DNA of 64,000 bases from an uncultured virus (IMG/VR IMGVR_UViG_3300018405_000013) (taxonomy: Duplodnaviria; Heunggongvirae; Uroviricota; Caudoviricetes). The position numbers and the translations under genes were made by a program. The stretch is from the IMG/VR virus record IMGVR_UViG_3300018405_000013; one strand, 5' to 3'. This document shows, piece after piece, positions 2,630-57,583 of this stretch (positions are counted from its first letter, which is position 1; every line of letters begins with the position of its first letter). The notes under the pieces were generated by a model. The model was not told where the DNA came from. It did no database searches and saw only the letters and a program-made list of their open reading frames with translations.

Positions 2630-2953
2630 TTATAGAATATCAACTATATACTTCTTAGGTTTAATCCAACATTCAGATTCACCGTCAAGTATTCCAAACA
2701 ATTTAACGTCATAGCTACACGTTCCATGCTTTCCAATATATGAAATTATAACAAATGCACCTGTATAGTCAGTAGTAGAAACATTGTATTCAAATAACTG
2801 AATAACCTTTCCGGTCTTAACAATATCTTCCTTATCAATCCCATCGCTGTAATAAAATTCTACTTCATCACCAACATTGATAGTAACATTGTTATATGTA
2901 ATACCAACTATTTTACTATCATCATTCACATCAAATATATAACCATTATCCAC
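2630..2953 (-). CDS. Small SH3/KOW-like protein with C-terminal tag (YIVDIL)
   Basis: VGDEV...G.V pattern; terminal motif. Confidence 0.75.
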   Translation of the reverse strand: MDNGYIFDVNDDSKIVGITYNNVTINVGDEVEFYYSDGIDKEDIVKTGKVIQLFEYNVSTTDYTGAFVIISYIGKHGTCSYDVKLFGILDGESECWIKPKKYIVDIL

Positions 2954-2959
2954 TTATAA

Positions 2960-3790
2960 TCACCACCTTAACAATCTACAATAACCAATAACTAATATCA
3001 AATATATAAAATTGAATAAACGATAGTTTATGAAATTTTATACACATATTCTGTTTTGCATATGAAGTTGATTATAATCAGAATCCTTATAATTTATTCA
3101 GACAATATAATCAACGGATATATGCTATATATACAGAATAATTTTCAAAAACAAATTCAAAAATATGTAGAAAAAATATAGAATAATTATACAAAATTTT
3201 ATGAAAATCTTATAACATAAATTTTACATTATTTTATAAATATTTTACAAAAATTTATAAATATTTTTTAGAAAGTTCTAATCACTTTTTACATATTTTT
3301 TACAAAATATTTTAGAAGCATCTAACATAACAGGTTTATATATAGGAAGAATCATTTTAACCAATTCTAAAATTTATCGCATATATAAAATTATTTTATA
3401 TAATATATTTATAAGTATTTACAATCTTTATTTAAATTTCATCAACCCTTATAAATTGTTTTTAATTTACAGATACCTTTATCTATATATTCTTGTTATA
3501 AATATACCACACACAAAATGGAATTCATTTTTAAATTTCTTCCATTTGTGTTATCATATGTATTTATATTATAAGAATACTTTATATATATATTTATATT
3601 ATAATATTATATTATATATTCTATCACTTTTTATGATTCTTTATATAAGGAACGATTGCGTAACATAAGTATTTCTATGGAGTTTTTTTCAAGTTTATCA
3701 CTTTTGTCTCTCAAAAATGGAGTCCGCCCAAAAAGGTGATAAAGAAAAAACCAGTATTTTTTTTAAAAGTTATCACTTTTGGGGTGATAA
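2960..3790. other. Very AT-rich non-coding tract ending in inverted TTATCAC/GTGATAA repeats (candidate origin)
   Basis: TTATCAC at 3695 and 3770, GTGATAA at 3736 and 3784; no credible ORF in the tract. Confidence 0.45.
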
Positions 3791-3800
3791 ATTTATCTGC

Positions 3801-5048
3801 TTACTTTTTAGTGGTTAAGGCTTTTTCTTCATCTAATTCTATACCCGCCCAATCGCACAATAACGTTCTCATCCTTCTTGATGGTATATATATATTGATT
3901 GATTCACAACATCTTAATCTACTTCTAAATATAAATTGTATCAATTCAGATAGCGCAAATGCATCTTCATCAACTTCTATTCCACAACTATCAAAGAATA
4001 ATTTAATGTATGGATTCATAAATCTATTAGCAATATATGCTACATTTTTTCTAGTTCTATATTCATTTGTCGCGCGCATATTTAATGAAACAAACGACTT
4101 TGAAAAACCTTTACTTGAATAGTCATCTTTACAAGATATAAACGTAGTCCAAATACAATCATTACCTTTAGCCTTAACAACATTTCTAAGAAAGTTATTG
4201 ATGTTATTTTTTAGAACCCTTGATACTGCGTTGTTTCTATTTTTATCAAACCAAGTTCTTGATAAGGCATTTCTGTCATATCCAATTTGATTAAGGTTAG
4301 GTTTGTCATATACGTTAATCAGTTTGCCATATTTTTCTTTGACGTTATAATCTTGATATTCTTCTGTAAATTCAAAATCTTTAACATATAGATATTCATA
4401 TTGGATATTGTAAAAATCATAATAATATTTTTGAACCTGTGCATCAAATATATATGTTAGTATAAATATATCGCTAAAGGCTTCAAATACTTTTATTGGA
4501 AACATCCATATAAGTAGATTAACCTGTTCACCTACTTTATGTGCTGTAACACATCCTAAATCGCATAGGTTTTTATAATCTTCGAACCTTCCAACATAAT
4601 CCTTATCGTCCCATATAACGGACACGCCATCAATATGTGCATATTTTTCCAATATAGTATTCGCATCATCCGACGATATTTCTAATGGCGAAACTACATC
4701 TGCAACTTCATCCATTATCAATATGTATCCGCTTAATTTAACCAAATTGATTACATCCGGCGTAAATCTATTAAACAGATTGTGTGTTGTTACAATATTA
4801 TCACCCTTTTCAATTAGTCTAAATATATCTTGCATCTTACTGCCATATGTTTGCGGTTCTTTAAACTTTTTATCAACACACGTTTCTTTTATTCTTTGAA
4901 CTTCTGTAAGATATGGTGTGACATACATAAATCTTTCGCCAACATTTGAAGGGTGGTTTATATAATTGATTGCGGCGGTTGTCTTTCCCGCCCCACAAAT
5001 CGCATCTATAACTTTTACTTTAATTTCATTCATTTTCAATCTCTCCAT
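3801..5048 (-). CDS. Superfamily 2 helicase-like / origin-binding-type protein (start may be 5033)
   Basis: Walker A DAICGAGKTT, Walker B LIMDEV, motif VI-like QFIFRSRLR. Confidence 0.75.
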   Translation of the reverse strand: MERLKMNEIKVKVIDAICGAGKTTAAINYINHPSNVGERFMYVTPYLTEVQRIKETCVDKKFKEPQTYGSKMQDIFRLIEKGDNIVTTHNLFNRFTPDVINLVKLSGYILIMDEVADVVSPLEISSDDANTILEKYAHIDGVSVIWDDKDYVGRFEDYKNLCDLGCVTAHKVGEQVNLLIWMFPIKVFEAFSDIFILTYIFDAQVQKYYYDFYNIQYEYLYVKDFEFTEEYQDYNVKEKYGKLINVYDKPNLNQIGYDRNALSRTWFDKNRNNAVSRVLKNNINNFLRNVVKAKGNDCIWTTFISCKDDYSSKGFSKSFVSLNMRATNEYRTRKNVAYIANRFMNPYIKLFFDSCGIEVDEDAFALSELIQFIFRSRLRCCESINIYIPSRRMRTLLCDWAGIELDEEKALTTKK

Positions 5049-5209
5049 ATTCCATCTTTAATTTCGATATGCTTAGTTGTTTTCTTACACTTAACACACC
5101 ATAAATCTTTTATATGACCAACTTTTCTTTGTCTGCCCGCATGTCTTGAAATTGGAAACAACGAACCACATTCTTCACATCTTAACCACGTTATCACTGT
5201 CTTTATCAT
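5036..5209 (-). CDS. 57-aa L33-like zinc-ribbon protein
   Basis: Own translation MIKTVITWLRCEECG...GHIKDLWCVKCKKTTKHIEIK; two CxxC pairs; ATGA overlap with upstream stop. Confidence 0.7.
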   Translation of the reverse strand: MIKTVITWLRCEECGSLFPISRHAGRQRKVGHIKDLWCVKCKKTTKHIEIKDGIWRD

Positions 5210-5514
5210 AAAAGCACCACCTCAAAATTATTGCCAACCAATTCCATCGCGCGATGCATAACCAGATACATATAGGAATCAGTCCTAACAGCATAAACAT
5301 CATTATTATGTTGATTTGGTTTATACGGTGCGATACACACAACTTTACCAATTGTTCCATCTTCATATAATGCACCACTTTCGAACAGTGGTAAATATTC
5401 TGGACAATTCGTAATAACCCATTCTTCATAGCAGTAATAGCAACATGCGTATGCTTTGCTTATTTTAACCTTTGAACCAACTTTAATATCATCACTCATA
5501 TCAACCCTCCTCAC
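5206..5514 (-). CDS. Small protein, W..N.P/IAP family, C-terminal tag (FEVVLL)
   Basis: Paralog of 17349, 20789, 24383, 29427. Confidence 0.8.
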   Translation of the reverse strand: MRRVDMSDDIKVGSKVKISKAYACCYYCYEEWVITNCPEYLPLFESGALYEDGTIGKVVCIAPYKPNQHNNDVYAVRTDSYMYLVMHRAMELVGNNFEVVLL

Positions 5515-5546: not shown

Positions 5547-5828
5547 TTAAATAAGGGAAACGGCATAGTTATTGAATAAATCTTCATAGTAACATTCTTC
5601 AAATCCATCAAGCATCCAATTACCAGTTAGACAGGATTCACTTGGACTAAAATCAGAATAGAAGAAAGATATATGTCGCTTTGCCATAAAACTACTAATA
5701 GTTCTACCCTTACCAAGTTTACCTTGTTGATTTAAAAAGTTAATAAATCTTTCTTTATTATTATCTTCTTTAAACAACATGTTTATATAGTTATTTTGAA
5801 TATGTTCTAAAATTTCAAAATCATTCAT
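5547..5828 (-). CDS. Small protein, RH.[ST]FFY/YYEDL family, C-terminal tag (YAVSLI)
   Basis: Paralog of 7881 and 23280. Confidence 0.8.
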   Translation of the reverse strand: MNDFEILEHIQNNYINMLFKEDNNKERFINFLNQQGKLGKGRTISSFMAKRHISFFYSDFSPSESCLTGNWMLDGFEECYYEDLFNNYAVSLI

Positions 5829-5840: not shown

Positions 5841-6191
5841 TTATAAAAGGTCTACTTCATATTTACCGCCAATAACAACTTCACCAGTTACTTTATTATA
5901 TTGCACCGGCGACATAACTTCGTATTCACAATATAATTCCATTCGCTTAAGTAAATTATCCATATCATTTGAACTTGCAAAAACGACACTTGTATTACAT
6001 GATTTTGTCAATAAACAATATCTGTCATTGAAAAACACTATTGGATAATATCCACCAACCGGAATATGTTGTTCAACAATCATTTTCGAATTGGCACTTT
6101 GATCTTCTATTATCTCTTTTGTATTAAATAAGTGTGTAAATTCAAAACTGCCCGCACTTTTAATATCCATAACAAGATTCATAATAACCAC
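5841..6191 (-). CDS. Small protein, YYPI family, C-terminal tag (YEVDLL)
   Basis: VGGYYPIV motif. Confidence 0.8.
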   Translation of the reverse strand: MVIMNLVMDIKSAGSFEFTHLFNTKEIIEDQSANSKMIVEQHIPVGGYYPIVFFNDRYCLLTKSCNTSVVFASSNDMDNLLKRMELYCEYEVMSPVQYNKVTGEVVIGGKYEVDLL

Positions 6192-6382
6192 CTTCCTTTA
6201 TAACAGACTTTTTATATCGGAAATTATTTCTTCTATCCGGTTTAATTCTTGCTTATCGTAAGATGATTGCGCCTTAAGTTTAATGGCTTTTAGCTTGTAT
6301 TTGCTTAAAAGTTTTTCTAAGTTTGAACGCATATTTACATACATATATACACGTGTATCTACCATAACAATATCTCCTTAAA

Positions 6383-6589
6383 CTATAGTTTTATTATCGC
6401 ATCATAGTTAATTTCTTCAACGCTTCCGAAATACCAATCTTGCGATTTATTGGAAAATGTTTTATTTTCTTTAAACCAGTGTTTTGCTTGTTCTTCTGTT
6501 AATGCAAATGCAAGATACCGTTCAATTTTTGTATCATTGCTTTTATCTTTATCAATATATCTGTGAATGTTAATAATCCATGCTTTCAT
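6383..6589 (-). CDS. Hypothetical protein
   Basis: ORF in operon context with RBS. Confidence 0.6.
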   Translation of the reverse strand: MKAWIINIHRYIDKDKSNDTKIERYLAFALTEEQAKHWFKENKTFSNKSQDWYFGSVEEINYDAIIKL

Positions 6590-6591
6590 AA

Positions 6592-6780
6592 TTACAATCC
6601 TTCCTTTGCTTCAATATAATATCCGCTATCATTTGTATGTAACAGAACACCGTTGTCAGTAATAACATATCCAACGACACTGTTAGGATTGATATATACA
6701 TGCGACGCAATAATTAAACCGATAACAATACCAATTATAAAAAATACAAGCACCTTAACAGTTTCTTTTAATAATTCCAT
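6592..6780 (-). CDS. Small membrane protein
   Basis: N-terminal hydrophobic helix; RBS GGGGAGG behind promoter. Confidence 0.7.
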   Translation of the reverse strand: MELLKETVKVLVFFIIGIVIGLIIASHVYINPNSVVGYVITDNGVLLHTNDSGYYIEAKEGL

Positions 6781-6820
6781 AACAATTACCTCCCCAATAA
6801 TTCTTTTTTAACCTACATAT

Positions 6821-6849
6821 ATTATATCATATTTTACATATAATGTCAA
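6821..6849 (-). promoter_or_regulatory. SigA-type promoter with extended -10
   Basis: TTGACA-17-TATAAT with TG at -15/-14. Confidence 0.85.
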
Positions 6850-6853
6850 ATCA

Positions 6854-6878
6854 AAAAAGACCGCATATTGCGGTCTTT
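6854..6878 (-). terminator. Intrinsic terminator
   Basis: AAAGACCGC-ATATT-GCGGTCTTT hairpin with U-tract on minus strand. Confidence 0.8.
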
Positions 6879-6887
6879 AAATAATAT

Positions 6888-7172
6888 TTATTTATACATT
6901 TTGTATTTAATGTAGTCACACATATCTTCAAAAGTGTTTCTAAAAAACCTATTCCACACCTTTGTTAATACACACCAAACACCTACGCATATTAGCATTA
7001 TGCATGTTCCAGGCAAAAACGCCAATAGTATTATTGCTTTAAGCAAAATACCGAATCTGGTAATTTTTTTACTTTTTGGGTATCTGTATACATAGCTAAA
7101 TACAACACTAGTAGATACACCAATTCCAAACAATACATATAAGTATAACAGCACAGAAATTAATTCATTCAT
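6888..7172 (-). CDS. Membrane protein
   Basis: Two hydrophobic segments; RBS GGGAGG. Confidence 0.7.
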   Translation of the reverse strand: MNELISVLLYLYVLFGIGVSTSVVFSYVYRYPKSKKITRFGILLKAIILLAFLPGTCIMLICVGVWCVLTKVWNRFFRNTFEDMCDYIKYKMYK

Positions 7173-7201
7173 TTTAATTACCTCCCAGTAAATTTAATAT
7201 A

Positions 7202-7462
7202 TTATAACTTTTTCCAATGAAATGTGCTACCTTCAAAATGTCCAGTTCTAAACGAAATTGATTTTGTAATTTCTATTTCCACTTCAAAAAATGATATAAA
7301 ATCTTTACCACAATCTTTGCACACATGGTCAAAGCAGATTGCGCTTGGCGCATTAACATTTAAAGTATTCATACTTTGATTTATAGTATATGTGCTTTTG
7401 CCGCCACATTTGGGGCACCTTATATCTTCAACATTTAATTTTTCTAAATTCATTTCAAACAC
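7202..7462 (-). CDS. Zinc-ribbon protein
   Basis: CPKCG and CKDCG pairs. Confidence 0.7.
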   Translation of the reverse strand: MFEMNLEKLNVEDIRCPKCGGKSTYTINQSMNTLNVNAPSAICFDHVCKDCGKDFISFFEVEIEITKSISFRTGHFEGSTFHWKKL

Positions 7463-7773
7463 CCCAATGTATATGACTTATGACATGTTTTAAAATAATT
7501 TTTAAAATCTTCTATAATTACATCATACAAACGATTGACTTCTTTAGTGCCGGCGCATAATCCTTCTTCTTTGAAGAAAGAAACATATGTCGAATCTTCG
7601 TTGTTTGAAATAACAATCTTGATTGAACTGTATGGCACGTATTTCGTTGGAATGATAACAATTGAATTGTCAACAGTGTCATTTTTAAAAGAACCGAAAA
7701 TGCTTCCTATAACATCTTCTGTGAACACGACCATGTCATTTACTGGCATATTACTTACATAAATATTTTCCAT
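7450..7773 (-). CDS. Hypothetical protein
   Basis: RBS TTGGGAGG downstream of promoter. Confidence 0.7.
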   Translation of the reverse strand: MENIYVSNMPVNDMVVFTEDVIGSIFGSFKNDTVDNSIVIIPTKYVPYSSIKIVISNNEDSTYVSFFKEEGLCAGTKEVNRLYDVIIEDFKNYFKTCHKSYTLGCLK

Positions 7774-7823
7774 TTTTAATTACCTCCCAAGTAACTATGT
7801 ATTTATCTTTAACTTATAATATA

Positions 7824-7852
7824 ATTATACCAAAAATGCATATAAATGTCAA
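7824..7852 (-). promoter_or_regulatory. SigA-type promoter
   Basis: TTGACA-17-TATAAT. Confidence 0.85.
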
Positions 7853-7880
7853 GTATGTAAAAAAGACCACAAAAGTGGCC

Positions 7881-8165
7881 TTATATCAAATCTACTTTAT
7901 AACTGGAAAATAAATCTTCATAATAATATTCGTTCTTCTTCCTACTTTGTCGTGTGCCATACATAACAGTGCTTGACATCTCCAAATCTTCTTCATAAAA
8001 GAATGTTAAGTGCCTTCTTCCAAGCAATTCGTTATATGAACCGCTACTCCAAAATACATGTTTATTTTTAAGATATTCAAGGAATGAAATTTGATTGGCG
8101 CCACGTTTAAATAACAGATTCATTGGCTCGGTTTTCATTTTCTGTAATATTTCATCGTTTGACAT
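7881..8165 (-). CDS. Small protein, RH.[ST]FFY/YYEDL family, tag (YKVDLI)
   Basis: Paralog of 5547. Confidence 0.8.
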   Translation of the reverse strand: MSNDEILQKMKTEPMNLLFKRGANQISFLEYLKNKHVFWSSGSYNELLGRRHLTFFYEEDLEMSSTVMYGTRQSRKKNEYYYEDLFSSYKVDLI

Positions 8166-8179
8166 AACACGCCCCCTTT

Positions 8180-8425
8180 CTATATTAAATCAACAGCGTA
8201 TTGATTTACAACAAGTTCTAAACAATCTACCATAACCCACCAGCATTTTCCTGGGTCGCCACATCCAATTCCACAAACACCATTGCCATCATGATATCCA
8301 ACCGGTGCATCATCAAATTCAACCAGTATTTCAGTTAGTGAAGAATTTTTTATATGTTTTATGGTTCCTGTTTTTCCTCTATAAACAACCCTATCCCCGA
8401 CTTCATATGGTTTATTATCATCCAT
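8180..8425 (-). CDS. SH3-like protein, H[DN]G/CW family, tag (YAVDLI)
   Basis: GDRV..G.I..VEFD..GYHDG..CWW. Confidence 0.8.
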   Translation of the reverse strand: MDDNKPYEVGDRVVYRGKTGTIKHIKNSSLTEILVEFDDAPVGYHDGNGVCGIGCGDPGKCWWVMVDCLELVVNQYAVDLI

Positions 8426-8436
8426 AATAATCCTCC

Positions 8437-8685
8437 TTATAACAAATTTACTTCATATTTATTTTCAAGTTCAATTTCATTATCTGCACACCAAATATCT
8501 TTATCTGATGCATGGTCAAATGTAACACATATTGGATAATCAGCGCAATTTGGAAATATATTGTTTACAATACCAACATCACCAACATGAACACCATATT
8601 CTGCCAATGGTGTTTCGATGCAGTCAGTGTCGTCTACAACACGAACCCTGTCGCCAATTTTATATTTAAGTTTATTGTCAGCCAT
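8437..8685 (-). CDS. SH3-like protein, GDRVR family, tag (YEVNLL)
   Basis: Paralog of 9035, 9280, 11164. Confidence 0.8.
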   Translation of the reverse strand: MADNKLKYKIGDRVRVVDDTDCIETPLAEYGVHVGDVGIVNNIFPNCADYPICVTFDHASDKDIWCADNEIELENKYEVNLL

Positions 8686-8694
8686 AATAACCCC

Positions 8695-9021
8695 CTAAAC
8701 TAAATCAACCGCATAGTTATCTTTAATAACCACATAACCATCTTCTTCATCGTATTCAAGTATATCAATTACTTCAAACGTAGTATGATTATGCAATACA
8801 CGTGTAACTTCGGATATATGAGTATTCCCAGTAACATGATCCACCACGTCAAATCTTTTATCAAGACATCTATATCTAAGACCATCATATATGATTGGAT
8901 AATATTTATCCACTTCAAGATACGATTTAATTACCGCAGTCTTTAAACTGGTTATTTTAACAAGACAATAAATTGTAAAACGTTCGTTCCTTGCATTATT
9001 TATGTTCATATTAATTTTCAT
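8695..9021 (-). CDS. YYPI family protein, tag (YAVDLV)
   Basis: VDKYYPIIYD. Confidence 0.8.
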   Translation of the reverse strand: MKINMNINNARNERFTIYCLVKITSLKTAVIKSYLEVDKYYPIIYDGLRYRCLDKRFDVVDHVTGNTHISEVTRVLHNHTTFEVIDILEYDEEDGYVVIKDNYAVDLV

Positions 9022-9034
9022 TGTATTTTACTCC

Positions 9035-9262
9035 CTATAACAAATCTACTTTAAACTCATTTATAAGTTCAAGTTCACATTCGGCAAATGTTAGCCTTCT
9101 ATCTTTAATATCAAGTTTAACTAAAAATGGGTATCTATCATTTCTTTCTAATCCAATAACAGTTCCTTCGTCGCCAACTTTAACCCCAAGTTGTTCCATT
9201 GATATAAATGGGCTTGAATTGCCAATTAGACGAACGCGACTGCCTATTTTTAATTCAGACAT
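9035..9262 (-). CDS. SH3-like protein, tag (FKVDLL)
   Basis: Close tandem paralog of 9280 (shared MEQL, LTFAECE). Confidence 0.85.
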   Translation of the reverse strand: MSELKIGSRVRLIGNSSPFISMEQLGVKVGDEGTVIGLERNDRYPFLVKLDIKDRRLTFAECELELINEFKVDLL

Positions 9263-9279
9263 TTTTCACACACCTCGCC

Positions 9280-9507
9280 TTATAATAATTCTACATTAAA
9301 CTTATTAACAGATTCTATTTCACATTCAGCAAATGTTAAAATTCCTTCGCGTTTATCAAGCTTTGCCACAATTGAATATTTTGTATTACTTCTAAATCCA
9401 ATTACCGTTCCTACATATCCCTTTTCAATTTTAAGTTGTTCCATTGTTAGAAATGGATTGATATTATCTATAACGCGAACACGGTCACCAATATTATATT
9501 TTGTCAT
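9280..9507 (-). CDS. SH3-like protein, tag (FNVELL)
   Basis: Close tandem paralog of 9035. Confidence 0.85.
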   Translation of the reverse strand: MTKYNIGDRVRVIDNINPFLTMEQLKIEKGYVGTVIGFRSNTKYSIVAKLDKREGILTFAECEIESVNKFNVELL

Positions 9508-9517
9508 TTCACACCAC

Positions 9518-9886
9518 CTAAATTAAATCTATTTGATACGAATTTGCAACAAATTCATACCGTGTAACACCATCGTTAAGTTCACCAATAAATGATAGTT
9601 TTAAATTGTCGGATAGTGTTTTATACACGCGAAGGTGTAAATACCCATCTTTGAAATTCATATCAAATTCTGCACGAACATAATCTTCACCTAAGAGCCA
9701 ATCCTTAATCCAACAATCTCTGTTTCCATTTTCAATTCTTTCACAAGCCATAATTTGTTTGTATAGTTTTAAGTATGATTTAAAATCTGGAATAAGTATA
9801 TAAGCCACATGATATGCATTAAATTGGTCAACTTTCTGTAAATCATCTATTCTAATCATAACATCCTCTTTTCTAAAATAAATCAC
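9518..9886 (-). CDS. Y.QI/N..W family protein, tag (YQIDLI)
   Basis: Paralog of 11739, 12108, 24016, 24701. Confidence 0.8.
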   Translation of the reverse strand: MIYFRKEDVMIRIDDLQKVDQFNAYHVAYILIPDFKSYLKLYKQIMACERIENGNRDCWIKDWLLGEDYVRAEFDMNFKDGYLHLRVYKTLSDNLKLSFIGELNDGVTRYEFVANSYQIDLI

Positions 9887-9938
9887 ATCACCTACCTATT
9901 TTGGTAAAAGATATAGTCTTTGATAATTTATACCACAT

Positions 9939-10226
9939 TCATTTTTTCGTCGCTGTATGGGGCGATTTGACCCCTTCTCGCACGCCCTGTGCACGACACG
10001 ATAGATTATATTTCGCAAATTCAATCAGCAATCCAATTATTTCTGAAAATAATACAGCCACCACTAATATCGGGAAAACATTTGGATTTTTATTTAAACC
10101 CAACGATTGCAATATAAGAATTAGGCTTAAAAAGAATATCGTTGAGATGTTAGCCAGTATTTTGCTTAAAATCGAAATCCACTGGTAAAACATTCCGAAT
10201 ATAAACCCCATCGTTAATATTTCCAT
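9939..10226 (-). CDS. Membrane protein
   Basis: Hydrophobic segments; RBS AAGGAG. Confidence 0.55.
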   Translation of the reverse strand: MEILTMGFIFGMFYQWISILSKILANISTIFFLSLILILQSLGLNKNPNVFPILVVAVLFSEIIGLLIEFAKYNLSCRAQGVREGVKSPHTATKK

Positions 10227-10470
10227 AACAGTCTCCTTTTGTATGTTATAATAAAAGAAATATTTTATCTGTAAAATTCATTTTCTACACCCATAGAAAC
10301 ATATGGATGAAAGTTTTTGATTTTTAAGATTTATGCCTGAATATGACAAAAAGATTTTATCTATATTTTTTTTAGTTTTTCTTCAAGTTTAGCTTTATAG
10401 TATCCCGCTTTGTAGGCATTATACACTAATCCATATACGCACAATAATTCTGCGATAGTAACGCCTATTA

Positions 10471-10857
10471 TTATAATTCCATCCATTCTATTACCTGCTT
10501 TCCGTTGTCACAATACTGAGATAAATCTATTCCGATTTCATTTAACACGTCGCACTTAATCCATACGTTGGTAAGTTGACGTTCTTCGATTTTGTAAGGT
10601 TTATCATAATACTCAATCATATAGTAAACGTCAGCTTCTTTTTTGATTATTAAATAGGTGCATGATTCGTATTCATCGCCTTCAATAAATTCAAAATCAT
10701 ACAACCCACCAACTTCTAAATCTTGAAGGATTGTTCTTTTAATAACACCAATTTTTGTCTTTAAATCATAGTAATAGCCAATATTTTCATATCCACAAAA
10801 CTTATCGCCGTTTGTGTGTTCTTCAATCCGTAATTTTACATCATTCATTTTATTCAT
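10471..10857 (-). CDS. Hypothetical protein
   Basis: ORF with RBS AAGGAAG. Confidence 0.65.
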   Translation of the reverse strand: MNKMNDVKLRIEEHTNGDKFCGYENIGYYYDLKTKIGVIKRTILQDLEVGGLYDFEFIEGDEYESCTYLIIKKEADVYYMIEYYDKPYKIEERQLTNVWIKCDVLNEIGIDLSQYCDNGKQVIEWMEL

Positions 10858-10866
10858 CTTCCTTTG

Positions 10867-11148
10867 CTATAACAGTTCAACATTATATTTACTTTTAGAA
10901 AAATCAGACCATTTAAGAATAGTATAACTACTTCTACATAACCCAGATACACTTCCGAAATATCCTTCATTAAAATAGTAAACGGTTCCAGAACGATATA
11001 CATCAAAATTATTAGTTTTACTGTATGGCAAACCACCGACCCAACATCTACCATCGTCATGCATTAATTTGCAAAATTCAATACATTCTTCTTCTGTCTG
11101 ACAATGCATTACATAGTTGCCAGTATAGTCTTTAAAATTAAATTTCAT
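10867..11148 (-). CDS. C.T.EE..F family protein, tag (YNVELL)
   Basis: HCQTEEECIEFC...GRCW.GG. Confidence 0.8.
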   Translation of the reverse strand: MKFNFKDYTGNYVMHCQTEEECIEFCKLMHDDGRCWVGGLPYSKTNNFDVYRSGTVYYFNEGYFGSVSGLCRSSYTILKWSDFSKSKYNVELL

Positions 11149-11163
11149 ATCAAGACCTCCCTA

Positions 11164-11424
11164 TTAAATTAAATCCACCTCATATTGATTTACTTTCTGG
11201 ATTTCAGCAACACAACAAGCAACACAACTACCATTACCAAAGTTAATGGTTATTGGAAACGCTTCTGTTTCTGCCAACATTCCGACTATAACACCTTCAT
11301 CGCCAATATCAACGCCATATTCAACTAACGGTGCACCAGAAGAATAATCCGTCCTTATTATTTTAACCCTGTCGCCAACCTTATAATCATCAAAATTATT
11401 TGGTGGTAATAAATCACTTTTCAT
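11164..11424 (-). CDS. SH3-like protein, tag (YEVDLI)
   Basis: PLVEYGVDIGDEG; paralog of 8437. Confidence 0.8.
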   Translation of the reverse strand: MKSDLLPPNNFDDYKVGDRVKIIRTDYSSGAPLVEYGVDIGDEGVIVGMLAETEAFPITINFGNGSCVACCVAEIQKVNQYEVDLI

Positions 11425-11723
11425 ATCAAATCCACCTTATACTTATTTCCGTTCAAATATATATTATGAAGTTTAGTTTCTATGCAATCTACCTTCCAGA
11501 CTCTTGGAATACGTTTACTGTCATATTCCACATTTATAATGAATCCGCCATTTTTATCTCCTTTATACCATAAATCAATATCACGAATGATTCCAGTAGT
11601 GGGAAATTTGATACCATGTCGAACGGAATATATACCAACGGTATCGCCAATCATTATTTTTTCGCCGTCACATTCGACAGATATTATTTTGTCGCCATTA
11701 TATTTTAAAACACATTCTTTCAC
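11421..11723 (-). CDS. Small protein, tag (YKVDLI)
   Basis: IGDTV...G.I pattern; terminal motif. Confidence 0.8.
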   Translation of the reverse strand: MKECVLKYNGDKIISVECDGEKIMIGDTVGIYSVRHGIKFPTTGIIRDIDLWYKGDKNGGFIINVEYDSKRIPRVWKVDCIETKLHNIYLNGNKYKVDLI

Positions 11724-11738
11724 AATTACACCACCTTA

Positions 11739-12098
11739 TTATATTAAATCAACATTGTACGCGTTGATTGTAAATTTATATATTATGGAATCCGAATATA
11801 CCCTTGATATTAAGCTAAATTTTAAAAGCCCGGAAAATACATCCTTGTGAACTTTGACATACATAACCCCATCGCGCTTTTTAGATATAAATTCTTTCTG
11901 AATATACCATGAACCAATATCATAATCTTCACGCCAAGCGTTTCTATTTTTTTCTGCAACTAAATCAGAAGATATGATTTGTTCATACAGTTCATAATAT
12001 TCTTCGAACGTAGATATTGAAAAATATACCGTATTAAATTCACCTATGCGGGGAATACTGCAATCTGCAAGTTGTGATATATTTGTTATGATTTTCAT
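11739..12098 (-). CDS. Y.QI/N..W family protein, tag (YNVDLI)
   Basis: LYEQIISSD..NRNAWREDY. Confidence 0.8.
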   Translation of the reverse strand: MKIITNISQLADCSIPRIGEFNTVYFSISTFEEYYELYEQIISSDLVAEKNRNAWREDYDIGSWYIQKEFISKKRDGVMYVKVHKDVFSGLLKFSLISRVYSDSIIYKFTINAYNVDLI

Positions 12099-12107
12099 TT
12101 TAACCCC

Positions 12108-12461
12108 CTAAATTATATCAACAGTATATTCATTATTTTCAGAAAACTTATATATGAAATCATTTTCTTTAAAATCATCTGCAAAAGCAAGTTGAAACAT
12201 CAAACCATCGGAACATGAACCAATTCTAAGAAATATACAATTATCCTTCAAACTTACATAGTCGTTATATTCATATTCGATTCCATCTATACCACGGCAC
12301 AAATCATTAAACCAAGATTGTTTATTTATTGGTTCAACACAGTCTGAATTGGAAACTTGTTCGTAGAATTTCTTATACAGGTCAAGCCCTCCAATTCGTA
12401 AAAAATATCTTCTTTCAAAATCTGTAATTTCAATTTTATCTATATTGGATATTGCTACCAT
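12108..12461 (-). CDS. Y.QI/N..W family protein, tag (YTVDII)
   Basis: FYEQVSNSD..NKQSWFND. Confidence 0.8.
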   Translation of the reverse strand: MVAISNIDKIEITDFERRYFLRIGGLDLYKKFYEQVSNSDCVEPINKQSWFNDLCRGIDGIEYEYNDYVSLKDNCIFLRIGSCSDGLMFQLAFADDFKENDFIYKFSENNEYTVDII

Positions 12462-12466
12462 AATTT

Positions 12467-13014: not shown

Positions 13015-13028
13015 AATAAATCCTAAAT

Positions 13029-26677: not shown

Positions 26678-26694
26678 TCTTTTTCTATACTATT

Positions 26695-38794: not shown

Positions 38795-38816
38795 ATCATA
38801 TATCTCCTTAATATAT

Positions 38817-45947: not shown

Positions 45948-45958
45948 GCTATCCTTAT

Positions 45959-46207: not shown

Positions 46208-46297
46208 TATTAAACACCTCCTTTATGTTTATTTTTGGCAGTCGTTATTTCATATTAATATTATATAATATAATTTAACGACTGTCAAATCAAGATA

Positions 46298-49900: not shown

Positions 49901-50548
49901 TTATAAAATAGCTTTCCATGAAACCTTTTCAGCCAATAAAATTGACTTTTTATTCACATCTACCTTTTCGGCACCTACTGATTTTTGCTTAAGTTCTACC
50001 ACATTTGTAGACGCTGTAGTCGTCGTAAAAGTATATTTGCCGATTTTTGAGTCTAAAAGTGCTTTAAAGGCTCCTTTGTCGATTAAGTCCTCTAAATCTA
50101 TTGTATAGGATAAATCGGATAAAATCGTAGCTTTCCTATTTACGGCAAAGCTCATTTCACCTTTATTGTTTAACTGCATCATTACAAATTCATCAAGCAT
50201 TGGATTCATAACTTTTTCGAACTTTGTAATTGCATCGTTATCAATATCGGCAGACTTAGACATCATAAATCTTCCAATCATATTGAACCTACATGGTCTG
50301 TAATCATTGTTGAACGTAGAATAAGAAACCCGTGACACATAATCTTCATCAAAGTTACACATAACCCACTCATTTACATTTTGTGGCGGAATATATATAT
50401 CCTCAACGATATATTTTTTGCCCAACTTTCTAATTAAACAAACCCACATTAAGTTTGTTTTAATGTTTTCTGCAATATACTTAAGCATTGCATACACCTG
50501 TGGTTTTAGAACAATTTCTGGTTCTGGATGTTTGTACTGAATTTTCAA
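49901..50548 (-). CDS. Possible catalytically degenerate JAB/MPN-like protein
   Basis: W...I......YIVEDIYIPPQNV resembles prokaryotic JAB N-terminal strands, but no HxH motif; promoter at 50597-50625. Confidence 0.45.
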   Translation of the reverse strand: MKIQYKHPEPEIVLKPQVYAMLKYIAENIKTNLMWVCLIRKLGKKYIVEDIYIPPQNVNEWVMCNFDEDYVSRVSYSTFNNDYRPCRFNMIGRFMMSKSADIDNDAITKFEKVMNPMLDEFVMMQLNNKGEMSFAVNRKATILSDLSYTIDLEDLIDKGAFKALLDSKIGKYTFTTTTASTNVVELKQKSVGAEKVDVNKKSILLAEKVSWKAIL

Positions 50549-50770: not shown

Positions 50771-51070
50771 TTATATAATTGATACGTTATAATCTATGCC
50801 ATATAAAAACATATCTAACGAATAGTTATACCCACCAATTCTAATATACCCATTTTTAGACCACTCATCTTCTTTGAAGACAAATCTAGTGAATTGATGT
50901 GCGTATTGTCTCATTTCAGAAGTAAAAGAACAATATATATTTGTTGCATATATCATATCTTCGACGGCTTTAAGTTTTAAAACATCACCGTCTTTAAGAT
51001 CTTTGAACCGCTCTTTTGTTTCCGGATCTCTTTGATTACTCAACATTTCCCTAATCTTAAATGAACACAT
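50771..51070 (-). CDS. Small protein, tag (YNVSII)
   Basis: DGDVLKL; terminal motif. Confidence 0.8.
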   Translation of the reverse strand: MCSFKIREMLSNQRDPETKERFKDLKDGDVLKLKAVEDMIYATNIYCSFTSEMRQYAHQFTRFVFKEDEWSKNGYIRIGGYNYSLDMFLYGIDYNVSII

Positions 51071-51079: not shown

Positions 51080-51367
51080 TCACTCCTTTGCAAAAATGTC
51101 AACTATATATGGTTTTTTGTCATAAACATATATATTTCTACCTTCTTTTTCATAGAAGTCATTTGACGCACACTTAAAATTACCGGAATCGCTTATTGTA
51201 ACACATAGATGATTTCCATACTTATCACAATAATACGACATTTCTCGTTTATGCGGTATTCCTTTTGTCAATAGAAATGCACAAAATATTCTAAACGAAT
51301 CAAAACTTGCAAATCTTACTGCGATTTCTTTAGATTTCAATTTTTCATATAAAGCAATTTCATTCAT
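51080..51367 (-). CDS. C.T.EE-like family protein with extended tag (YIVDIF-AKE)
   Basis: AVRF.SFD.F..FC.FL...GI. Confidence 0.75.
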   Translation of the reverse strand: MNEIALYEKLKSKEIAVRFASFDSFRIFCAFLLTKGIPHKREMSYYCDKYGNHLCVTISDSGNFKCASNDFYEKEGRNIYVYDKKPYIVDIFAKE

Positions 51368-51384: not shown

Positions 51385-51678
51385 TTATAATATATCAATA
51401 ACATATGGATTTGCTTCTAATCTTCTTAATGCAATATTTGGTATCACATACGGAATTTCTTTAAATGTAGAAGTTGAACCATTTGTATATTTTATTTCAA
51501 ACCTAGCATCAACTAGGTTTAAATGGTCATACATAGTTCCACTTAAGCCATAAAAAAGCGTTCCCTGTAAGCCATACGCAGTGCGTTCATCTTCCGTAAA
51601 GGTTTTTTTTACCAAATCTGTAATAGCATCAAATGATAAAAACCCAACAATGTCACCGTCTTTAAATTCGTAATTCAT
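51385..51678 (-). CDS. Small protein, tag (YVIDIL)
   Basis: FKDGDIV; terminal motif. Confidence 0.8.
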   Translation of the reverse strand: MNYEFKDGDIVGFLSFDAITDLVKKTFTEDERTAYGLQGTLFYGLSGTMYDHLNLVDARFEIKYTNGSTSTFKEIPYVIPNIALRRLEANPYVIDIL

Positions 51679-54910: not shown

Positions 54911-55276
54911 TTATATTAAATCTACAGTATATTCTGAAATCTTTTTTATTGAAAAGCCATATATTCCATATGGCATACATGATGATTTTCCATTTTTTGA
55001 TAGATAATATAACTCTGTCCCTTTAGGGTGTCTAGAGTTGCTATTTTCAATATTTATAACTGTATATTTCGCACCGATATTTCCACCTAATACTTTATCA
55101 GAATTATAATCGGAGTTTATATTTACTATAGCGCTACGAACAATACTTTTAGATCTCTCACTTCTTAATGTTGCTATCTTATTTTCCGCATCAGAAATAG
55201 CAATATCTCTATCCAGTATAACTATGCTATCACCGATACTTATGTCATCTTTTATTTTTTTCATAAATAATATCAC
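54911..55276 (-). CDS. Small protein, tag (YTVDLI)
   Basis: IGDSIVI; terminal motif. Confidence 0.8.
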   Translation of the reverse strand: MILFMKKIKDDISIGDSIVILDRDIAISDAENKIATLRSERSKSIVRSAIVNINSDYNSDKVLGGNIGAKYTVINIENSNSRHPKGTELYYLSKNGKSSCMPYGIYGFSIKKISEYTVDLI

Positions 55277-55278
55277 CT

Positions 55279-57252
55279 CTATTCATTGCTTTTTGAAATC
55301 ATTGAAAAAAAGACATCTTCGTTTATTATTTTAATACCAAGTTTTTTAGCTTCTTCGTTCTTTGTGGATTTCGAAGTCACATCATTGTTTATCAAATATA
55401 ACTCGCCGACTTTTGGCTTGCTTACTGATTTTACAAACTTTCCTCCCATCTCTTGTATTAATTTGACAAGATTTGCTCTTCGAATCTTGTTTAATTCACC
55501 AGTAACAGCAAATACTTTTCCAGACAACACATTTGAAATAACTTCTTCTTCTTTTTCAACTTCAAATGATAATTCTTTTGAAAGATTTTCAACCAATGAT
55601 ATATTTAAATCAAGGTAGTCAGAAATTGCACATTCGGTGATTGCGCCAACATCTTTTATGGTGCACCACTTAAAGAAGCTATAATAATATTCTATAAATT
55701 TAGATATATCACCAGAGCAATAATCTGATATTTTCTTACAGGTTCCTCTGCCGGTATATGGAATACCTAAAGATGTTAAAAACTTGGTTAATGTCGTATT
55801 TCTACTTACCTTTATTGCAGACATAAGATTACTATACGACAATTCACCAAATCCTTGGAGGTTTACAATTAAAGCCTTATTTTTCGCCCACATTTCATCA
55901 TCGTAAATATCTTCTATTTTATGAAGTATTCCAAGATCAACGAATCTTTCTATTGTGCTTTCACCTAAACCATCAATGTCCATTGAATCCTTTTCAGTAA
56001 AGTGTATAAGCGTGTTTATTAGTTTAGCCTTACATCCGCTTGTATTTGTGCAATGAAGTGTCTCGACACCGTCATTTTCAACAATATTAGCTTTGGCGCC
56101 ACATATTGGACACACTTCTGGTATTTCACAATTATTACTTTTGGTAAGATTTTCATATATCTGCGGAATTACCTTATTCGCCCTGTATACACTTATAGTA
56201 TCACCAATACCTAATCTTAATCTTTTTACGATTGATACATTATGAACACTCGCTCTAGTTGTCATTGCGCCATCCAAATCAACTTCTTCAAATATGGCAA
56301 CCGGATTAATTAACCCTGTTCTACTTGTATTCCATTCTATGCCAACCAATTTAGTTTCATATACTTCATCTTTCCATTTCAGCGCCATCCTGCAATTTTC
56401 ATATTTTGACGTTTTACCCAAGCTTATTGAATATGGAATACTATTATACTCAAATACTATTCCATCAACTGGATATTTATATTCTTCTGGATTAAATAAT
56501 TTAATAGAATCCTCTACGCCAAGTAAACATCTTTCTACAACAGTAAAACCAAAAGATTCAAGTAGTCTAAAATTGGTTTCTTTAAAATCATTGCCCAAGT
56601 CAGTAACACATTCAAACAGGATGAAGTCAAGATTTCTTTCTTTAACCAAGGCAGTATTAAGTTGTCTAATTGTTCCTGCGGCTAGATTTCTTGGGTGCGA
56701 ATATTTTTTATCAACATCCATATTTTCGTTTATCTTGTTGAAGTTTTCCCAAGAAATAACACATTCGCCACGAACAACTAGTTCACCTTTTCTTGGTATT
56801 GTTGTTGGCAGGTTTTTTATAAAAGATGCCTGTGCTGTAACATCTTCCCCATATTCACCATTTCCGCGTGTTAATGCTTGAAATAATTTTCCATCTCGAT
56901 ATGTTAATACTAATGTCAAACCATCTAATTTCCAACTTGCATATGACATTTTCTTGGTTGCAAAATTTTTAATTATTGAAACATCTTTTGTTTTATCACA
57001 AGACAACATTGGTTTCACATGCTTAACAACTGGCAACGATTCAAGAATTCCACCCTCTATATTTTTAGTTGGCGAATTAGACATTATGATATTCATTTTG
57101 TTTTCCAAGTCTAGTAATTCAGCATAATAATCGTCATACTGCTTATCTGTCAATACTGAATCATCATATTTATGATACATTATTGATGCATTATTCAAAA
57201 TCTTAATCAATGTATGCATCCTTTTAACATCTTTTAAATTACTTGTTTCCAT
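55279..57252 (-). CDS. ligA: NAD-dependent DNA ligase
   Basis: KLDG adenylation motif, TRGNG..GEDVT, VRGE, PRNLAAG, SRTG, C4 zinc finger, C-terminal BRCT. Confidence 0.95.
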   Translation of the reverse strand: METSNLKDVKRMHTLIKILNNASIMYHKYDDSVLTDKQYDDYYAELLDLENKMNIIMSNSPTKNIEGGILESLPVVKHVKPMLSCDKTKDVSIIKNFATKKMSYASWKLDGLTLVLTYRDGKLFQALTRGNGEYGEDVTAQASFIKNLPTTIPRKGELVVRGECVISWENFNKINENMDVDKKYSHPRNLAAGTIRQLNTALVKERNLDFILFECVTDLGNDFKETNFRLLESFGFTVVERCLLGVEDSIKLFNPEEYKYPVDGIVFEYNSIPYSISLGKTSKYENCRMALKWKDEVYETKLVGIEWNTSRTGLINPVAIFEEVDLDGAMTTRASVHNVSIVKRLRLGIGDTISVYRANKVIPQIYENLTKSNNCEIPEVCPICGAKANIVENDGVETLHCTNTSGCKAKLINTLIHFTEKDSMDIDGLGESTIERFVDLGILHKIEDIYDDEMWAKNKALIVNLQGFGELSYSNLMSAIKVSRNTTLTKFLTSLGIPYTGRGTCKKISDYCSGDISKFIEYYYSFFKWCTIKDVGAITECAISDYLDLNISLVENLSKELSFEVEKEEEVISNVLSGKVFAVTGELNKIRRANLVKLIQEMGGKFVKSVSKPKVGELYLINNDVTSKSTKNEEAKKLGIKIINEDVFFSMISKSNE

Positions 57253-57265
57253 TTTTCTTCTCCCT

Positions 57266-57583
57266 CTATAATAATTCTACATTATAATCACAAGTTTTAA
57301 TTCCGGCAAATTTATTATTCCATATACTCGCCACTTCTTCTAAATTCATACATAGGTGAATGTGTGACCAATCATCATAACGTCCTGGATAATATCTTGA
57401 TATAACATTGTATTTCGTATAAAGTTTTACTTCATAGTAATTTGAGTGTCTTACGTTATTAATAGATACATTTGGATATTTCCCTTTATTATCCTTATAT
57501 ACTATTGCTGTAATTTTATTAAAAGTTAGCTTATATGAAATAAGACGCCCGTGATTACATTTTGATTTAAATAATTTAAACAT
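57266..57583 (-). CDS. Small protein, tag (YNVELL)
   Basis: Terminal motif; first gene after promoter 57612-57640. Confidence 0.75.
   Translation of the reverse strand: MFKLFKSKCNHGRLISYKLTFNKITAIVYKDNKGKYPNVSINNVRHSNYYEVKLYTKYNVISRYYPGRYDDWSHIHLCMNLEEVASIWNNKFAGIKTCDYNVELL

Follow-up and report, generated by a model that had tools for sequence, protein, structure and literature searches.

A conserved C-terminal tail shared by 63 small predicted proteins of an uncultured tailed phage

Tagged genes in the window

We analyzed a 64-kilobase (kb) stretch of DNA, hereafter the window, from an uncultured tailed phage (IMG/VR record IMGVR_UViG_3300018405_000013) with a genome of roughly 169 kb, and focused on a short C-terminal tail, or tag, shared by dozens of its small predicted proteins; counts refer to the window unless stated otherwise. 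The window has a G+C content of 31% and a strong strand bias, with nearly all long open reading frames (ORFs) on the minus strand. Mechanical gene calling, i.e., a greedy choice of non-overlapping minus-strand ORFs, gave a set of 144 genes covering 88% of the window. The tag was described by a loose pattern, [YF]-x-[VIAT]-x-[LI]-[LIVT]-stop, and by a strict form, [YF]xV[DENS][LI][LI]. Among ORFs of at least 40 amino acids (aa), the loose pattern stands at the end of 64 of 186 on the minus strand vs 2 of 159 on the plus strand. One of the 64 (26685-26810, 41 aa) was excluded since it is overlapped by a longer ORF, leaving 63 tagged genes among the 144 (44%), in agreement with the original prediction of about 63 minus-strand ORFs sharing a C-terminal motif. 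These genes, taken from the ORF list and the gene set, are given below with their last eight residues and with the family assigned by profile grouping (fam0 to fam4; single, singleton); pLDDT is the predicted local distance difference test score of two structure models.

2630-2953, minus strand, 107 aa, single, KKYIVDIL
5206-5514, minus strand, 102 aa, fam0 SH3-like, NNFEVVLL
5547-5828, minus strand, 93 aa, fam4, NNYAVSLI
5841-6191, minus strand, 116 aa, fam1, GKYEVDLL (modeled; tail 111-116 at pLDDT <50)
7881-8165, minus strand, 94 aa, fam4, SSYKVDLI
8180-8425, minus strand, 81 aa, fam0 SH3-like, NQYAVDLI
8437-8685, minus strand, 82 aa, fam0 SH3-like, NKYEVNLL
8695-9021, minus strand, 108 aa, fam1, DNYAVDLV
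9035-9262, minus strand, 75 aa, fam0 SH3-like, NEFKVDLL
9280-9507, minus strand, 75 aa, fam0 SH3-like, NKFNVELL
9518-9886, minus strand, 122 aa, fam3, NSYQIDLI
10867-11148, minus strand, 93 aa, fam2, SKYNVELL
11164-11424, minus strand, 86 aa, fam0 SH3-like, NQYEVDLI
11421-11723, minus strand, 100 aa, single, NKYKVDLI
11739-12098, minus strand, 119 aa, fam3, NAYNVDLI
12108-12461, minus strand, 117 aa, fam3, NEYTVDII
14022-14363, minus strand, 113 aa, fam1, GEYCVDLI
17155-17352, minus strand, 65 aa, fam0 SH3-like, NQYTVNLL
17349-17645, minus strand, 98 aa, fam0 SH3-like, GTYEVNLL
18882-19181, minus strand, 99 aa, fam0 SH3-like, DEYKTELI
20789-21088, minus strand, 99 aa, fam0 SH3-like, RSFEVELL
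21111-21410, minus strand, 99 aa, fam0 SH3-like, NGYVAELL
21772-22056, minus strand, 94 aa, single, KGYVVDLL
22053-22364, minus strand, 103 aa, fam2, NPYEVALV
22378-22617, minus strand, 79 aa, single, NAYAVELI
22621-22941, minus strand, 106 aa, fam2, NKYCVSLI (modeled; tail 100-106 at pLDDT <50)
22957-23298, minus strand, 113 aa, fam2, NPYVVGLI
23280-23570, minus strand, 96 aa, fam4, PKYCVELI
24016-24372, minus strand, 118 aa, fam3, NSYSVDLI
24383-24688, minus strand, 101 aa, fam0 SH3-like, HTYDVELI
24701-25051, minus strand, 116 aa, fam3, NSYSVNLI
28439-28777, minus strand, 112 aa, fam1, MDYSVTLV
29085-29414, minus strand, 109 aa, fam1, DSYEVELI
29427-29723, minus strand, 98 aa, fam0 SH3-like, KSYNVELI
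29724-30032, minus strand, 102 aa, fam2, NPYVVDIL
30037-30297, minus strand, 86 aa, fam0 SH3-like, SDYSVDII
30306-30488, minus strand, 60 aa, fam0 SH3-like, NDFSVDII (DUF6501)
30500-30754, minus strand, 84 aa, fam0 SH3-like, PKYQVDLI
32002-32265, minus strand, 87 aa, single, NPYSVDLL
32267-32515, minus strand, 82 aa, fam0 SH3-like, NKYEVELT
32529-32864, minus strand, 111 aa, fam1, NDYSVDLI
32861-33061, minus strand, 66 aa, fam0 SH3-like, EDYEVELL
33058-33261, minus strand, 67 aa, fam0 SH3-like, NKYEVNLL
33268-33609, minus strand, 113 aa, fam1, KSYAVNLI
34352-34627, minus strand, 91 aa, fam0 SH3-like, ECYTVDII
34638-34946, minus strand, 102 aa, fam2, NRYCVELI
34964-35215, minus strand, 83 aa, fam0 SH3-like, NNYSVDLI
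35582-35926, minus strand, 114 aa, single, STYNVDLL
35946-36239, minus strand, 97 aa, single, KKYEVDLI
36252-36521, minus strand, 89 aa, fam0 SH3-like, DNYNVDLI
37185-37817, minus strand, 210 aa, single, KSYVVNLL
37828-38205, minus strand, 125 aa, single, NKYVVDLI
38213-38500, minus strand, 95 aa, fam0 SH3-like, NSYEVSLL
38516-38848, minus strand, 110 aa, single, LKYGVELI
39024-39341, minus strand, 105 aa, fam0 SH3-like by BLAST cluster only, NKYSVELI
39355-39627, minus strand, 90 aa, single, NNYSVELL
40780-41049, minus strand, 89 aa, single, NKYAVDLI
41046-41276, minus strand, 76 aa, fam0 SH3-like, NRYEVEII
41289-41540, minus strand, 83 aa, fam0 SH3-like, YVYSVELL
50771-51070, minus strand, 99 aa, single, IDYNVSII
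51385-51678, minus strand, 97 aa, single, NPYVIDIL
54911-55276, minus strand, 121 aa, single, SEYTVDLI
57266-57583, minus strand, 105 aa, single, CDYNVELL

The tag is terminal and conserved as a peptide

Within the same 144 proteins, the loose pattern occurs internally 18 times in 17,811 positions, which predicts 0.15 terminal copies vs the 63 seen; the expectation from composition is 0.0013 per position, or ~0.19 terminal copies. The strict form was found 53 times at the terminus and 0 times internally. Both comparisons, which the original prediction had proposed as a check on its claim that the motif sits exactly at the free C terminus, thus show enrichment, and the terminal-only position points to recognition of the free end. 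The conserved tail is longer than the hexapeptide of the loose pattern and reads N-x-Y-x-V-[D/E]-L-[I/L]-COOH over eight residues. Across the 63 carriers, position -8 is N in 34, position -6 is Y in 58 and F in 5, position -4 is V in 59, position -3 is acidic (D or E) in 48, position -2 is L in 54, and position -1 is I or L in 59, while the seven commonest residues at -5 are E (14), S (11), N (8), V (7), A (6), K (4), and T (4). The carriers are also acidic, with a median isoelectric point of 5.46 vs 7.63 for 37 untagged proteins of 60 to 130 aa.

At the DNA level, information over the tail is codon-periodic, with ~0 bits at third positions, and codon use at -8, -6, -4, -3, and -2 is indistinguishable from that in the rest of the genes (chi-square P values of 0.075 to 0.95); the last tag codon alone shows a preference, for an A ending. 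These third positions and the ordinary codon use indicate that selection acts on the peptide, as the varied codons had already suggested, and DNA conservation does not exceed protein conservation. In 13 tagged genes that abut or overlap the next start (e.g., at 11421-11424, 17349-17352, and 22053-22056), the codons for Y-E/K-V often spell a Shine-Dalgarno-like string (GAGGTG), which is present within the tag codons of 9 of these 13 genes vs 4 of the 50 others. Such strings would be expected if the tail arose incidentally from a DNA, RNA, or translational signal where genes end, e.g., the ribosome-binding site of the next gene or a recombination linker. However, the third positions carry ~0 bits, codon use is ordinary at five of the six positions, and the tail is followed by a separate ribosome-binding site after the stop in most carriers, which makes this explanation extremely improbable. 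A DNA-level signal was thus rejected on third-position information and codon use.

The carriers form several families and their tails are predicted to be free

Carriers were grouped by BLAST and then by profile iteration after removal of the last nine residues. BLAST placed 40 of the 63 in eight clusters, whereas profile iteration gave families of 27 (25 tagged), 8 (7 tagged), 6, 5, and 3 members (the last three fully tagged) and 16 tagged singletons; 39024-39341 joins the largest family (family 0) through its BLAST cluster, bringing it to 26 tagged members. Consequently, 47 of the 63 carriers fall into five paralogue families, 26 in the SH3-like family 0 and 21 in the four others. The original prediction had described the carriers as unrelated, which overstates the case for these 47 and is only partly right overall. 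With tags trimmed, hhalign left the five families unlinked, the best probability between any two being <5%, and the best scores overall (≤41%) tied a few singletons to family 0. A Pfam scan of all 63 carriers returned a single match above the cut-off, DUF6501 in 30306-30488 (residues 2-49). The carriers are nearly all small ORFans, and an identity as DNA replication, repair, or modification proteins was not borne out by Pfam (1 of 63, a DUF). Family 0 is SH3-like: its outside homologues P0003, P0004, and P0006 match PF18129 (SH3_12) above the cut-off, and window protein 30500-30754 matches it below the cut-off (22.7 vs 26.2 bits). Of the 31 carriers scanned against PHROG, several have matches that stop before the tail, e.g., over residues 7-73 of 82 in 8437-8685. 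Membrane proteins had been said to lack the tag almost without exception, to which one carrier, 37185-37817, adds a correction, with two hydrophobic membrane-type segments near its N terminus as judged by eye.

Two carriers were modeled with AlphaFold. The family 1 model (5841-6191, from a 7-sequence alignment) is strand-rich, with a mean pLDDT of 85.2 and a predicted template modeling score of 0.79; the first ten residues score 73 and tag residues 111-116 <50. The family 2 model (22621-22941, from a 6-sequence alignment) has a helix/strand fold with a mean pLDDT of 83.7; the first ten residues score 81 and tag residues 100-106 <50. Foldseek found no match in the Protein Data Bank at E ≤0.001 for either model. 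The family 1 model has a weak FeoA/SH3-like match (Z 5.3, root mean square deviation 3.5, 73 aligned residues), and judging from this model families 0 and 1 may be distantly related. One shared fold for all carriers was rejected on the negative hhalign result between families and on the differing secondary structure of the two models. Rather than forming an integral strand of one shared fold, the tail has low confidence in two different predicted folds; by these models, the tag is a predicted add-on, a flexible tail after the last structured element, on different folds.

A tail that is free in monomer models, with an alternating Y-x-V-x-L that suits an added beta-strand, could also act as a donor strand, pairing with other tagged proteins or with the carrier's own domain in another copy. 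Such self-association is very unlikely, as the same tail is present on at least two predicted folds with no common acceptor surface and the strict need for a chain end would be left unexplained.

Homologues of the SH3-like domain beyond the window

An exhaustive search with a profile of 20 members of the SH3-like family retrieved 2335 proteins at E ≤0.001. Among the best 150 of these, 135 are longer than 170 aa and mostly multi-repeat, and the strict motif is present in none of the 135. Nine of the best 150 are tagged, namely, six window proteins, one 98.8% variant, and P0128 and P0141, which are 35 to 40% identical to window paralogues and encoded outside the window; a contig scan for the coding source of these two gave chance matches only. 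In P0002 to P0006, the SH3-like domain is found in long tandem-repeat proteins, with up to 25 to 30 repeats in 2448 aa and short linkers rich in Gly/Ser or Glu/Pro/Lys. In two of the four repeat proteins inspected, P0003 and P0006, repeats end in ...LELV and pass into a linker at the point where window proteins add N-x-Y-x-V-D-L-I. Judged by these alignments, the outside homologues appear to stop just before the tail position. Beyond family 0, a word-index homologue search with tagged proteins 5841-6191 and 50771-51070 returned only the proteins themselves or a 99% variant.

Variants, near-copies, and untagged genes

Several genes of the window carry an altered tag or a near-copy of it, and the capped, degenerate, tag-less, and frameshifted variants among them offer ready-made natural controls.

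51080-51367, minus strand, 95 aa, natural capped variant, PYIVDIF followed by three extra residues, AKE
36793-37167, minus strand, fam1 paralogue whose tag is degenerate (SFTISF) and extended by 16 residues
33597-33839, minus strand, fam0 paralogue that has lost the tag and ends IKIKGCVL
21522-21775, minus strand, frameshifted fam0 gene, with its N-terminal part in ORF 21554-21775 and its C-terminal piece at 21596-21522
58709-60277, minus strand, C-terminal half of the phage DnaE, ending EQYNVSLK, a near-copy with K instead of I/L at the last position

The C-terminal piece of the frameshifted copy matches residues 73-97 of the tagged outside protein P0141, and the ending of DnaE agrees with the near-match noted in the original prediction. 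Two GNAT acetyltransferase paralogues within the tag arrays, 15169-15594 and 23582-24004, end NKYYKLNI and KKYYKLNL, which are tag-like without matching the pattern.

Among untagged proteins of at least 90 aa, 19 of 54 have a Pfam family at E ≤0.001. These matches include a DnaE-type polymerase, an NAD-dependent ligase, an SLT lysozyme, two GNAT acetyltransferases, a radical-SAM protein, a MazF-like protein, S51 and M28-like peptidases, NADAR, LemA, and Bax1-I. Shine-Dalgarno-like strings precede 92 of the 144 genes, and all 28 consensus promoters of the type TTGAC[AT]-N16-18-TATA[AC]T are on the minus strand, with none on the plus strand, the carriers lying in operons with these host-type promoters. 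No structural genes were found in the 64 kb of ~169 kb and no transfer RNA (tRNA) genes in the window. No close phage is present in INPHARED, where the only matches cover 78 bases, in two records belonging to the same phage. A contig of 169,327 bases carries one protein cluster of the window phage, and a 143-kb metagenome contig (L044) overlaps the high end of the window at 100% identity and adds ~2.9 kb beyond it. We read the window as the early-plus-replication arm of a ~169-kb uncultured phage, presumably of a Gram-positive-type host.

Other features were recorded along the way. The DnaE-type polymerase is split, with its PHP and NTPase domains encoded by 61429-62886 and its finger and HHH domains by a second ORF, 58709-60277. 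Between them lies a 278-aa ORF (60343-61179) with a weak LAGLIDADG match, which has the look of an intron or an intein-type insertion. A PemK/MazF-like toxin domain (E 7e-36) lies within the early region in 27817-28350, which has a 68-residue N-terminal extension. Five consensus-type promoters (45687, 45773, 45860, 45947, and 46288) occupy a gene-poor stretch of higher G+C at 45687-46288, the first four spaced by 86 to 87 bases. Just past the high end of the window, at L044 415-2118, the phage has a gene for a 567-aa protein resembling class I tRNA synthetases of the Glu/Gln type.

Other phages carry other shared tails

A relative of P0141 led to L052, a 114.5-kb IMG/VR contig in which 15 of 38 genes end [R/K]-K-N-N-[Y/F]-[Y/W] with varied codons; all 15 pattern matches in the L052 record lie between 58.9 and 70.3 kb, and the carriers include homologues of the SH3-like family of the window along with other families. 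IMG/VR was then scanned with a back-translated motif of the SH3-like family, which gave 70 loci, each scored by the number of genes sharing at least 4 of their last 6 residues. Overlapping pieces of the L052 group and of G006 account for 29 loci, with scores of 7 to 17 and an RKNNY[Y/W]-type tail; L126 scores 12 with a new tail and L115 scores 5 with another, and the other 39 score 1 to 2. For comparison, 27 background loci from other searches score 1 to 2 and the window scores 39. The records concerned are as follows.

G004 (holds L126), 175 kb, 100% complete, tail E-P-x-Y-E-I-Y, 32 pattern matches, 28 of 279 genes by gene call
G006, 130 kb, 99% complete, RKNNY[Y/W]-type tail, 17 of 172 genes
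G007 (holds L115), 42.7 kb, 36% complete, tail [V/I]-S-[I/L]-S-[K/N]-L-[I/L], 5 of 28 genes in the locus

All 32 matches of G004 lie on one strand between 67 and 91 kb, with 5 internal copies in 53,492 residues, and its 28 carriers form 22 tag-trimmed BLAST clusters. In G006, there are 0 internal copies in 38,758 residues and six such clusters among the 17 carriers. Shine-Dalgarno-like strings precede only 13 of the 263 plus-strand genes of G004, a scarcity that we take to suggest a host group differing from that of the window phage. G004 and G006 have three protein matches in common; the SH3-like family is common to the window and to both, and the window and G006 alone also share a nucleotidyltransferase, a MazF-like protein, DnaE, the LAGLIDADG ORF, and one small ORF. 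Judging by their predicted proteins, phages that share almost no genes thus carry different shared tails on comparable arrays, which is new here. The four tails end D-L-I, E-I-Y, N-L-I, and N-Y-Y, in each case with a polar or acidic residue ahead of two that are hydrophobic or aromatic. That the same domain family bears different tails in phages with almost no other genes in common suggests a general organizing principle of early regions and not a peculiarity of a single genome.

The tag of the window itself was not found in multiple copies on any IMG/VR contig with a strict DNA pattern, which covers at most 11 of the 63 window tails; this pattern matched 41 times, always singly, in frames open for no more than 65 codons, and no two matches lay on one contig. 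No tagged genes were found near the ligase in phages whose ligase is 40 to 45% identical (L001, L002, and L045 to L051, with only 8 to 9 ORFs in L045 and L046), and the whole records G001 and G002 gave 0 and 3 pattern hits vs 2 and 2 for a reversed control.

One code per lineage, with four different tails and a window tag that the strict pattern did not find in multiple copies elsewhere, is what a lineage-specific reader encoded by the phage would produce, e.g., a capsid or scaffold pocket that loads heads for injection, or a phage-specific compartment or adaptor. An extended tail with alternating hydrophobic residues at a free C terminus is also seen in encapsulin cargo peptides, and the SH3-like domain exists elsewhere in long multi-repeat proteins. 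Against such a reader, the carriers lie behind consensus host-type promoters typical of early genes, 37185-37817 looks membrane-anchored, the 64 kb seen of ~169 kb hold no structural genes, and the families common to G004 and G006 are limited to carriers, a nuclease, and a P-loop helicase/PhoH match. On balance, we consider a phage-encoded reader quite unlikely. A broader and speculative proposal, which we regard as doubtful, is that tailed phages of different host groups run a C-terminal address code, in which each lineage places its own tail on a large set of fast-evolving small early accessory proteins, SH3-like binder domains common to several phages among them, and has a dedicated reader. 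This reader would handle the whole set at once, e.g., for head loading, gathering at replicating DNA, or timed clearance, and domains moving between phages would take on the local tail.

In G006 (100452-113542, L187), four replication-region proteins, including a PD-(D/E)XK nuclease and a RecD-like helicase, end RNFGF, KQFFF, RKFIF, and NKFSF. From the sequences, this x-F-x-F ending appears to be a second shared tail, unlike the RKNNYY of the small G006 proteins. Such endings bear on whether the window tag docks its carriers on a sliding clamp or on another replisome hub of the phage DnaE. In favor of such docking, the final stretch x-V-[D/E]-L-[I/L] is similar to the clamp motif Q-L-[S/D]-L-F; DnaE ends EQYNVSLK, a type of match for which a rough estimate gives ~0.02 expected among 81 untagged proteins; and in G004 a near-tag (PFEIF) stands at the end of one untagged protein only, a PD-(D/E)XK nuclease. 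No clamp of the DnaN or T4 type was found in G001 and G002 (distant ligase relatives) or in G003 to G007 (the other tagged phages), so that these phages would use the host clamp. Nevertheless, Q is not among the seven commonest residues at -5, and the window tag is always terminal, whereas clamp-binding motifs need not be. The 63 carriers are small ORFans rather than DNA enzymes, the ligase and a helicase-like protein of the window lack the tag, and the four G006 replication proteins share a tail other than that of its small proteins. A replisome hub is unlikely as the reader.

The L052 locus also drew attention to enzymes that act on a C-terminal carboxylate. Between its two tag arrays (6315-13018) lie genes for a 574-aa protein, a JAB-like protein, and a ThiF/E1-like protein, and a reverse transcriptase gene lies just past the second array; an E1 with similar neighbors recurs in ~20 further IMG/VR loci. 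The tail could accordingly be a substrate site for E1-like adenylation and conjugation, a ligase, or a carboxypeptidase. The L052 ThiF/E1-like protein (Pfam E 1e-21; PADLOC E1-E2 6e-16) has a JAB-like neighbor with an H-x-H-x7-S-x2-D string, the E1 gene of G007 lies ~1.4 kb from the first tagged gene, and the window encodes a JAB-like protein without histidines (49901-50548, 215 aa). The latter is weakly linked to the L052 JAB-like protein (23% identity over 147 residues), and its look-alike Atlas cluster (score 0.92) has Prok-JAB on 33% of members; the JAB histidines are replaced in it and in three relatives at 57 to 98% identity, and by its sequence it may be an inactive JAB/MPN-type domain. 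However, ThiF is present in G003, G005, and G007 but absent from G004 (100% complete) and G006 (99%), both tagged, and no ThiF match was obtained among the window proteins scanned. E1 is encoded in 21 loci of two further phage groups, and the 6 of these that were scored show no shared tail. In addition, the tails end L-I, L-L, Y-Y, Y-W, or I-Y and not Gly-Gly, as ubiquitin-like proteins do. We consider a carboxylate enzyme highly improbable, and the E1/JAB pair, and with it the conjugation site listed among the options of the original prediction, was rejected as a general reader on the absence of E1 from G004 and G006.

A probable docking tail and its candidate reader

Enrichment, terminal-only position, protein-level selection, occurrence on several families, a predicted free tail, its absence from outside homologues, and its replacement by other peptides in other phages together are the signature of a carboxylate-dependent short linear docking motif. 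Our core reading, to which we assign a probability of roughly 0.75, is that the tail is a portable, flexible C-terminal peptide that is probably read in trans by one common partner. It would extend many different small early proteins, most of them acidic, beyond their final structured element, and the partner would recognize the Y, V, and L side chains, the last hydrophobic residue, and the free carboxylate. The proposed docking or sorting signal read by one receptor is thus partly supported: protein-level selection, the terminal-only position, and a predicted free tail on different folds fit such a signal, but no receptor was found, and no PDZ, Clp, or other peptide-reading family was detected among the untagged window proteins (Pfam on the 54 of at least 90 aa, with a relaxed scan of 14 of them). 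PDZ class III ligands follow the pattern [D/E]-x-hydrophobic-COOH, which the tail fits, with D or E at -3 in 48 of 63 and a hydrophobic last residue.

As to the identity of the partner, we tentatively favor host energy-dependent proteolytic machinery, i.e., a Clp-, FtsH-, or Lon-type protease or its adaptor, and give the full statement, docking tail and host protease together, well under even odds. The tail would then be either a C-degron that makes early proteins short-lived or a tether that brings the target of each variable domain to the protease. We infer each of its three steps, namely, the existence of a single reader, its host origin, and its identity as a protease. The same strategy in phages with almost no common genes, together with the similar tail ends, leads us to lean toward a universal host machine. 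Nonpolar free ends are typical of bacterial C-degrons; here, the tails have pLDDT <50 in two models, and the last two residues are, by definition of the pattern, L/I plus I/L/V/T in all 63 carriers and L plus I/L in most. Several points weigh against this reading. Both structure models rest on shallow alignments. Eight conserved positions, including the near-invariant Y at -6 and N at -8, are more than expected for a simple degron, and acidic residues near the end, such as D or E at -3, weaken ClpX-type recognition. A degron on 44% of the early proteins would seem a costly device. Every tail is restricted to a single lineage, which fits a co-evolving phage-encoded reader as well as a host reader, and the near-copies on DnaE and on the G004 nuclease point to a replisome hub rather than a protease.

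Significance and comparison with known systems

Most small early phage genes are ORFans without a handle, which a shared tail would supply. One eight-residue peptide could serve as bait for the partner of all 63 proteins, and capping or deletion of the tail would be a uniform test across all carriers. Should a host protease or the replisome turn out to be the reader, the tails would be tools for targeted degradation or recruitment in Gram-positive bacteria; if it is a capsid pocket, they would be natural cargo-loading peptides for phage heads.

Shared terminal docking peptides are already known, as in the T4 clamp tails, the T4 capsid targeting sequence, and degrons. To our knowledge, no phage has been found in which dozens of early proteins carry one and the same tail. 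The titles and opening lines of abstracts in the literature searched likewise contain nothing on one tail across dozens of early phage proteins or on lineage-specific tails on a common domain family, in keeping with the original statement that no described phage system has this motif at such a copy number.

T4 gp43, gp33, and gp55 share C-terminal clamp-binding peptides, and bacterial clamp motifs take the forms QL[S/D]LF and QLxLxL. Related literature includes a T4 review (PMC2988020) and a phage Mu paper (PMC12867686). As in T4, where the peptide serves docking on a hub, a single short hydrophobic peptide ends several different proteins of one phage, and positions -4 to -1 (mostly V, D/E, L, and I/L) as well as the near-copy on the phage DnaE recall the clamp motif. 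In contrast to the T4 and bacterial peptides, the tail of the window has 63 carriers, nearly all early small ORFans, has no conserved Q, is strictly terminal, and adds a near-invariant Y at -6 and N at -8.

The ssrA tag and the MuA C terminus are C-terminal degrons of bacterial AAA+ proteases, ClpX in the case of MuA. SPO1 gp53 is an adaptor-like protein for ClpCP (PMC6873191). The window tail resembles AAA+ degrons in its disorder, predicted here from sequence, and its nonpolar free end, and early phage proteins that reprogram a host protease are known; it differs in its acidic -3 and its long conserved stretch.

Encapsulin cargo-loading peptides are terminal address labels for an HK97-type shell. 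T4 places a capsid targeting sequence on its internal proteins (PMC3012670 and PMC9026906). Both resemble the present case in that one short terminal peptide is carried by unrelated proteins. However, the T4 signal is N-terminal and cleaved by the prohead protease, whereas the window tag is C-terminal in all 63 carriers, and these carriers lie behind early-type promoters, and one looks membrane-anchored.

Poxvirus ankyrin/PRANC proteins join variable binding domains to a constant C-terminal element that recruits a common host machine. The window likewise has a large, fast-diverging family joined to one constant C-terminal element, which differs from PRANC, a folded F-box-like domain of eukaryotic viruses, in being an eight-residue peptide in a phage. 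As unrelated phages mark comparable arrays with different tails, these look like a widespread, undescribed protein address label.

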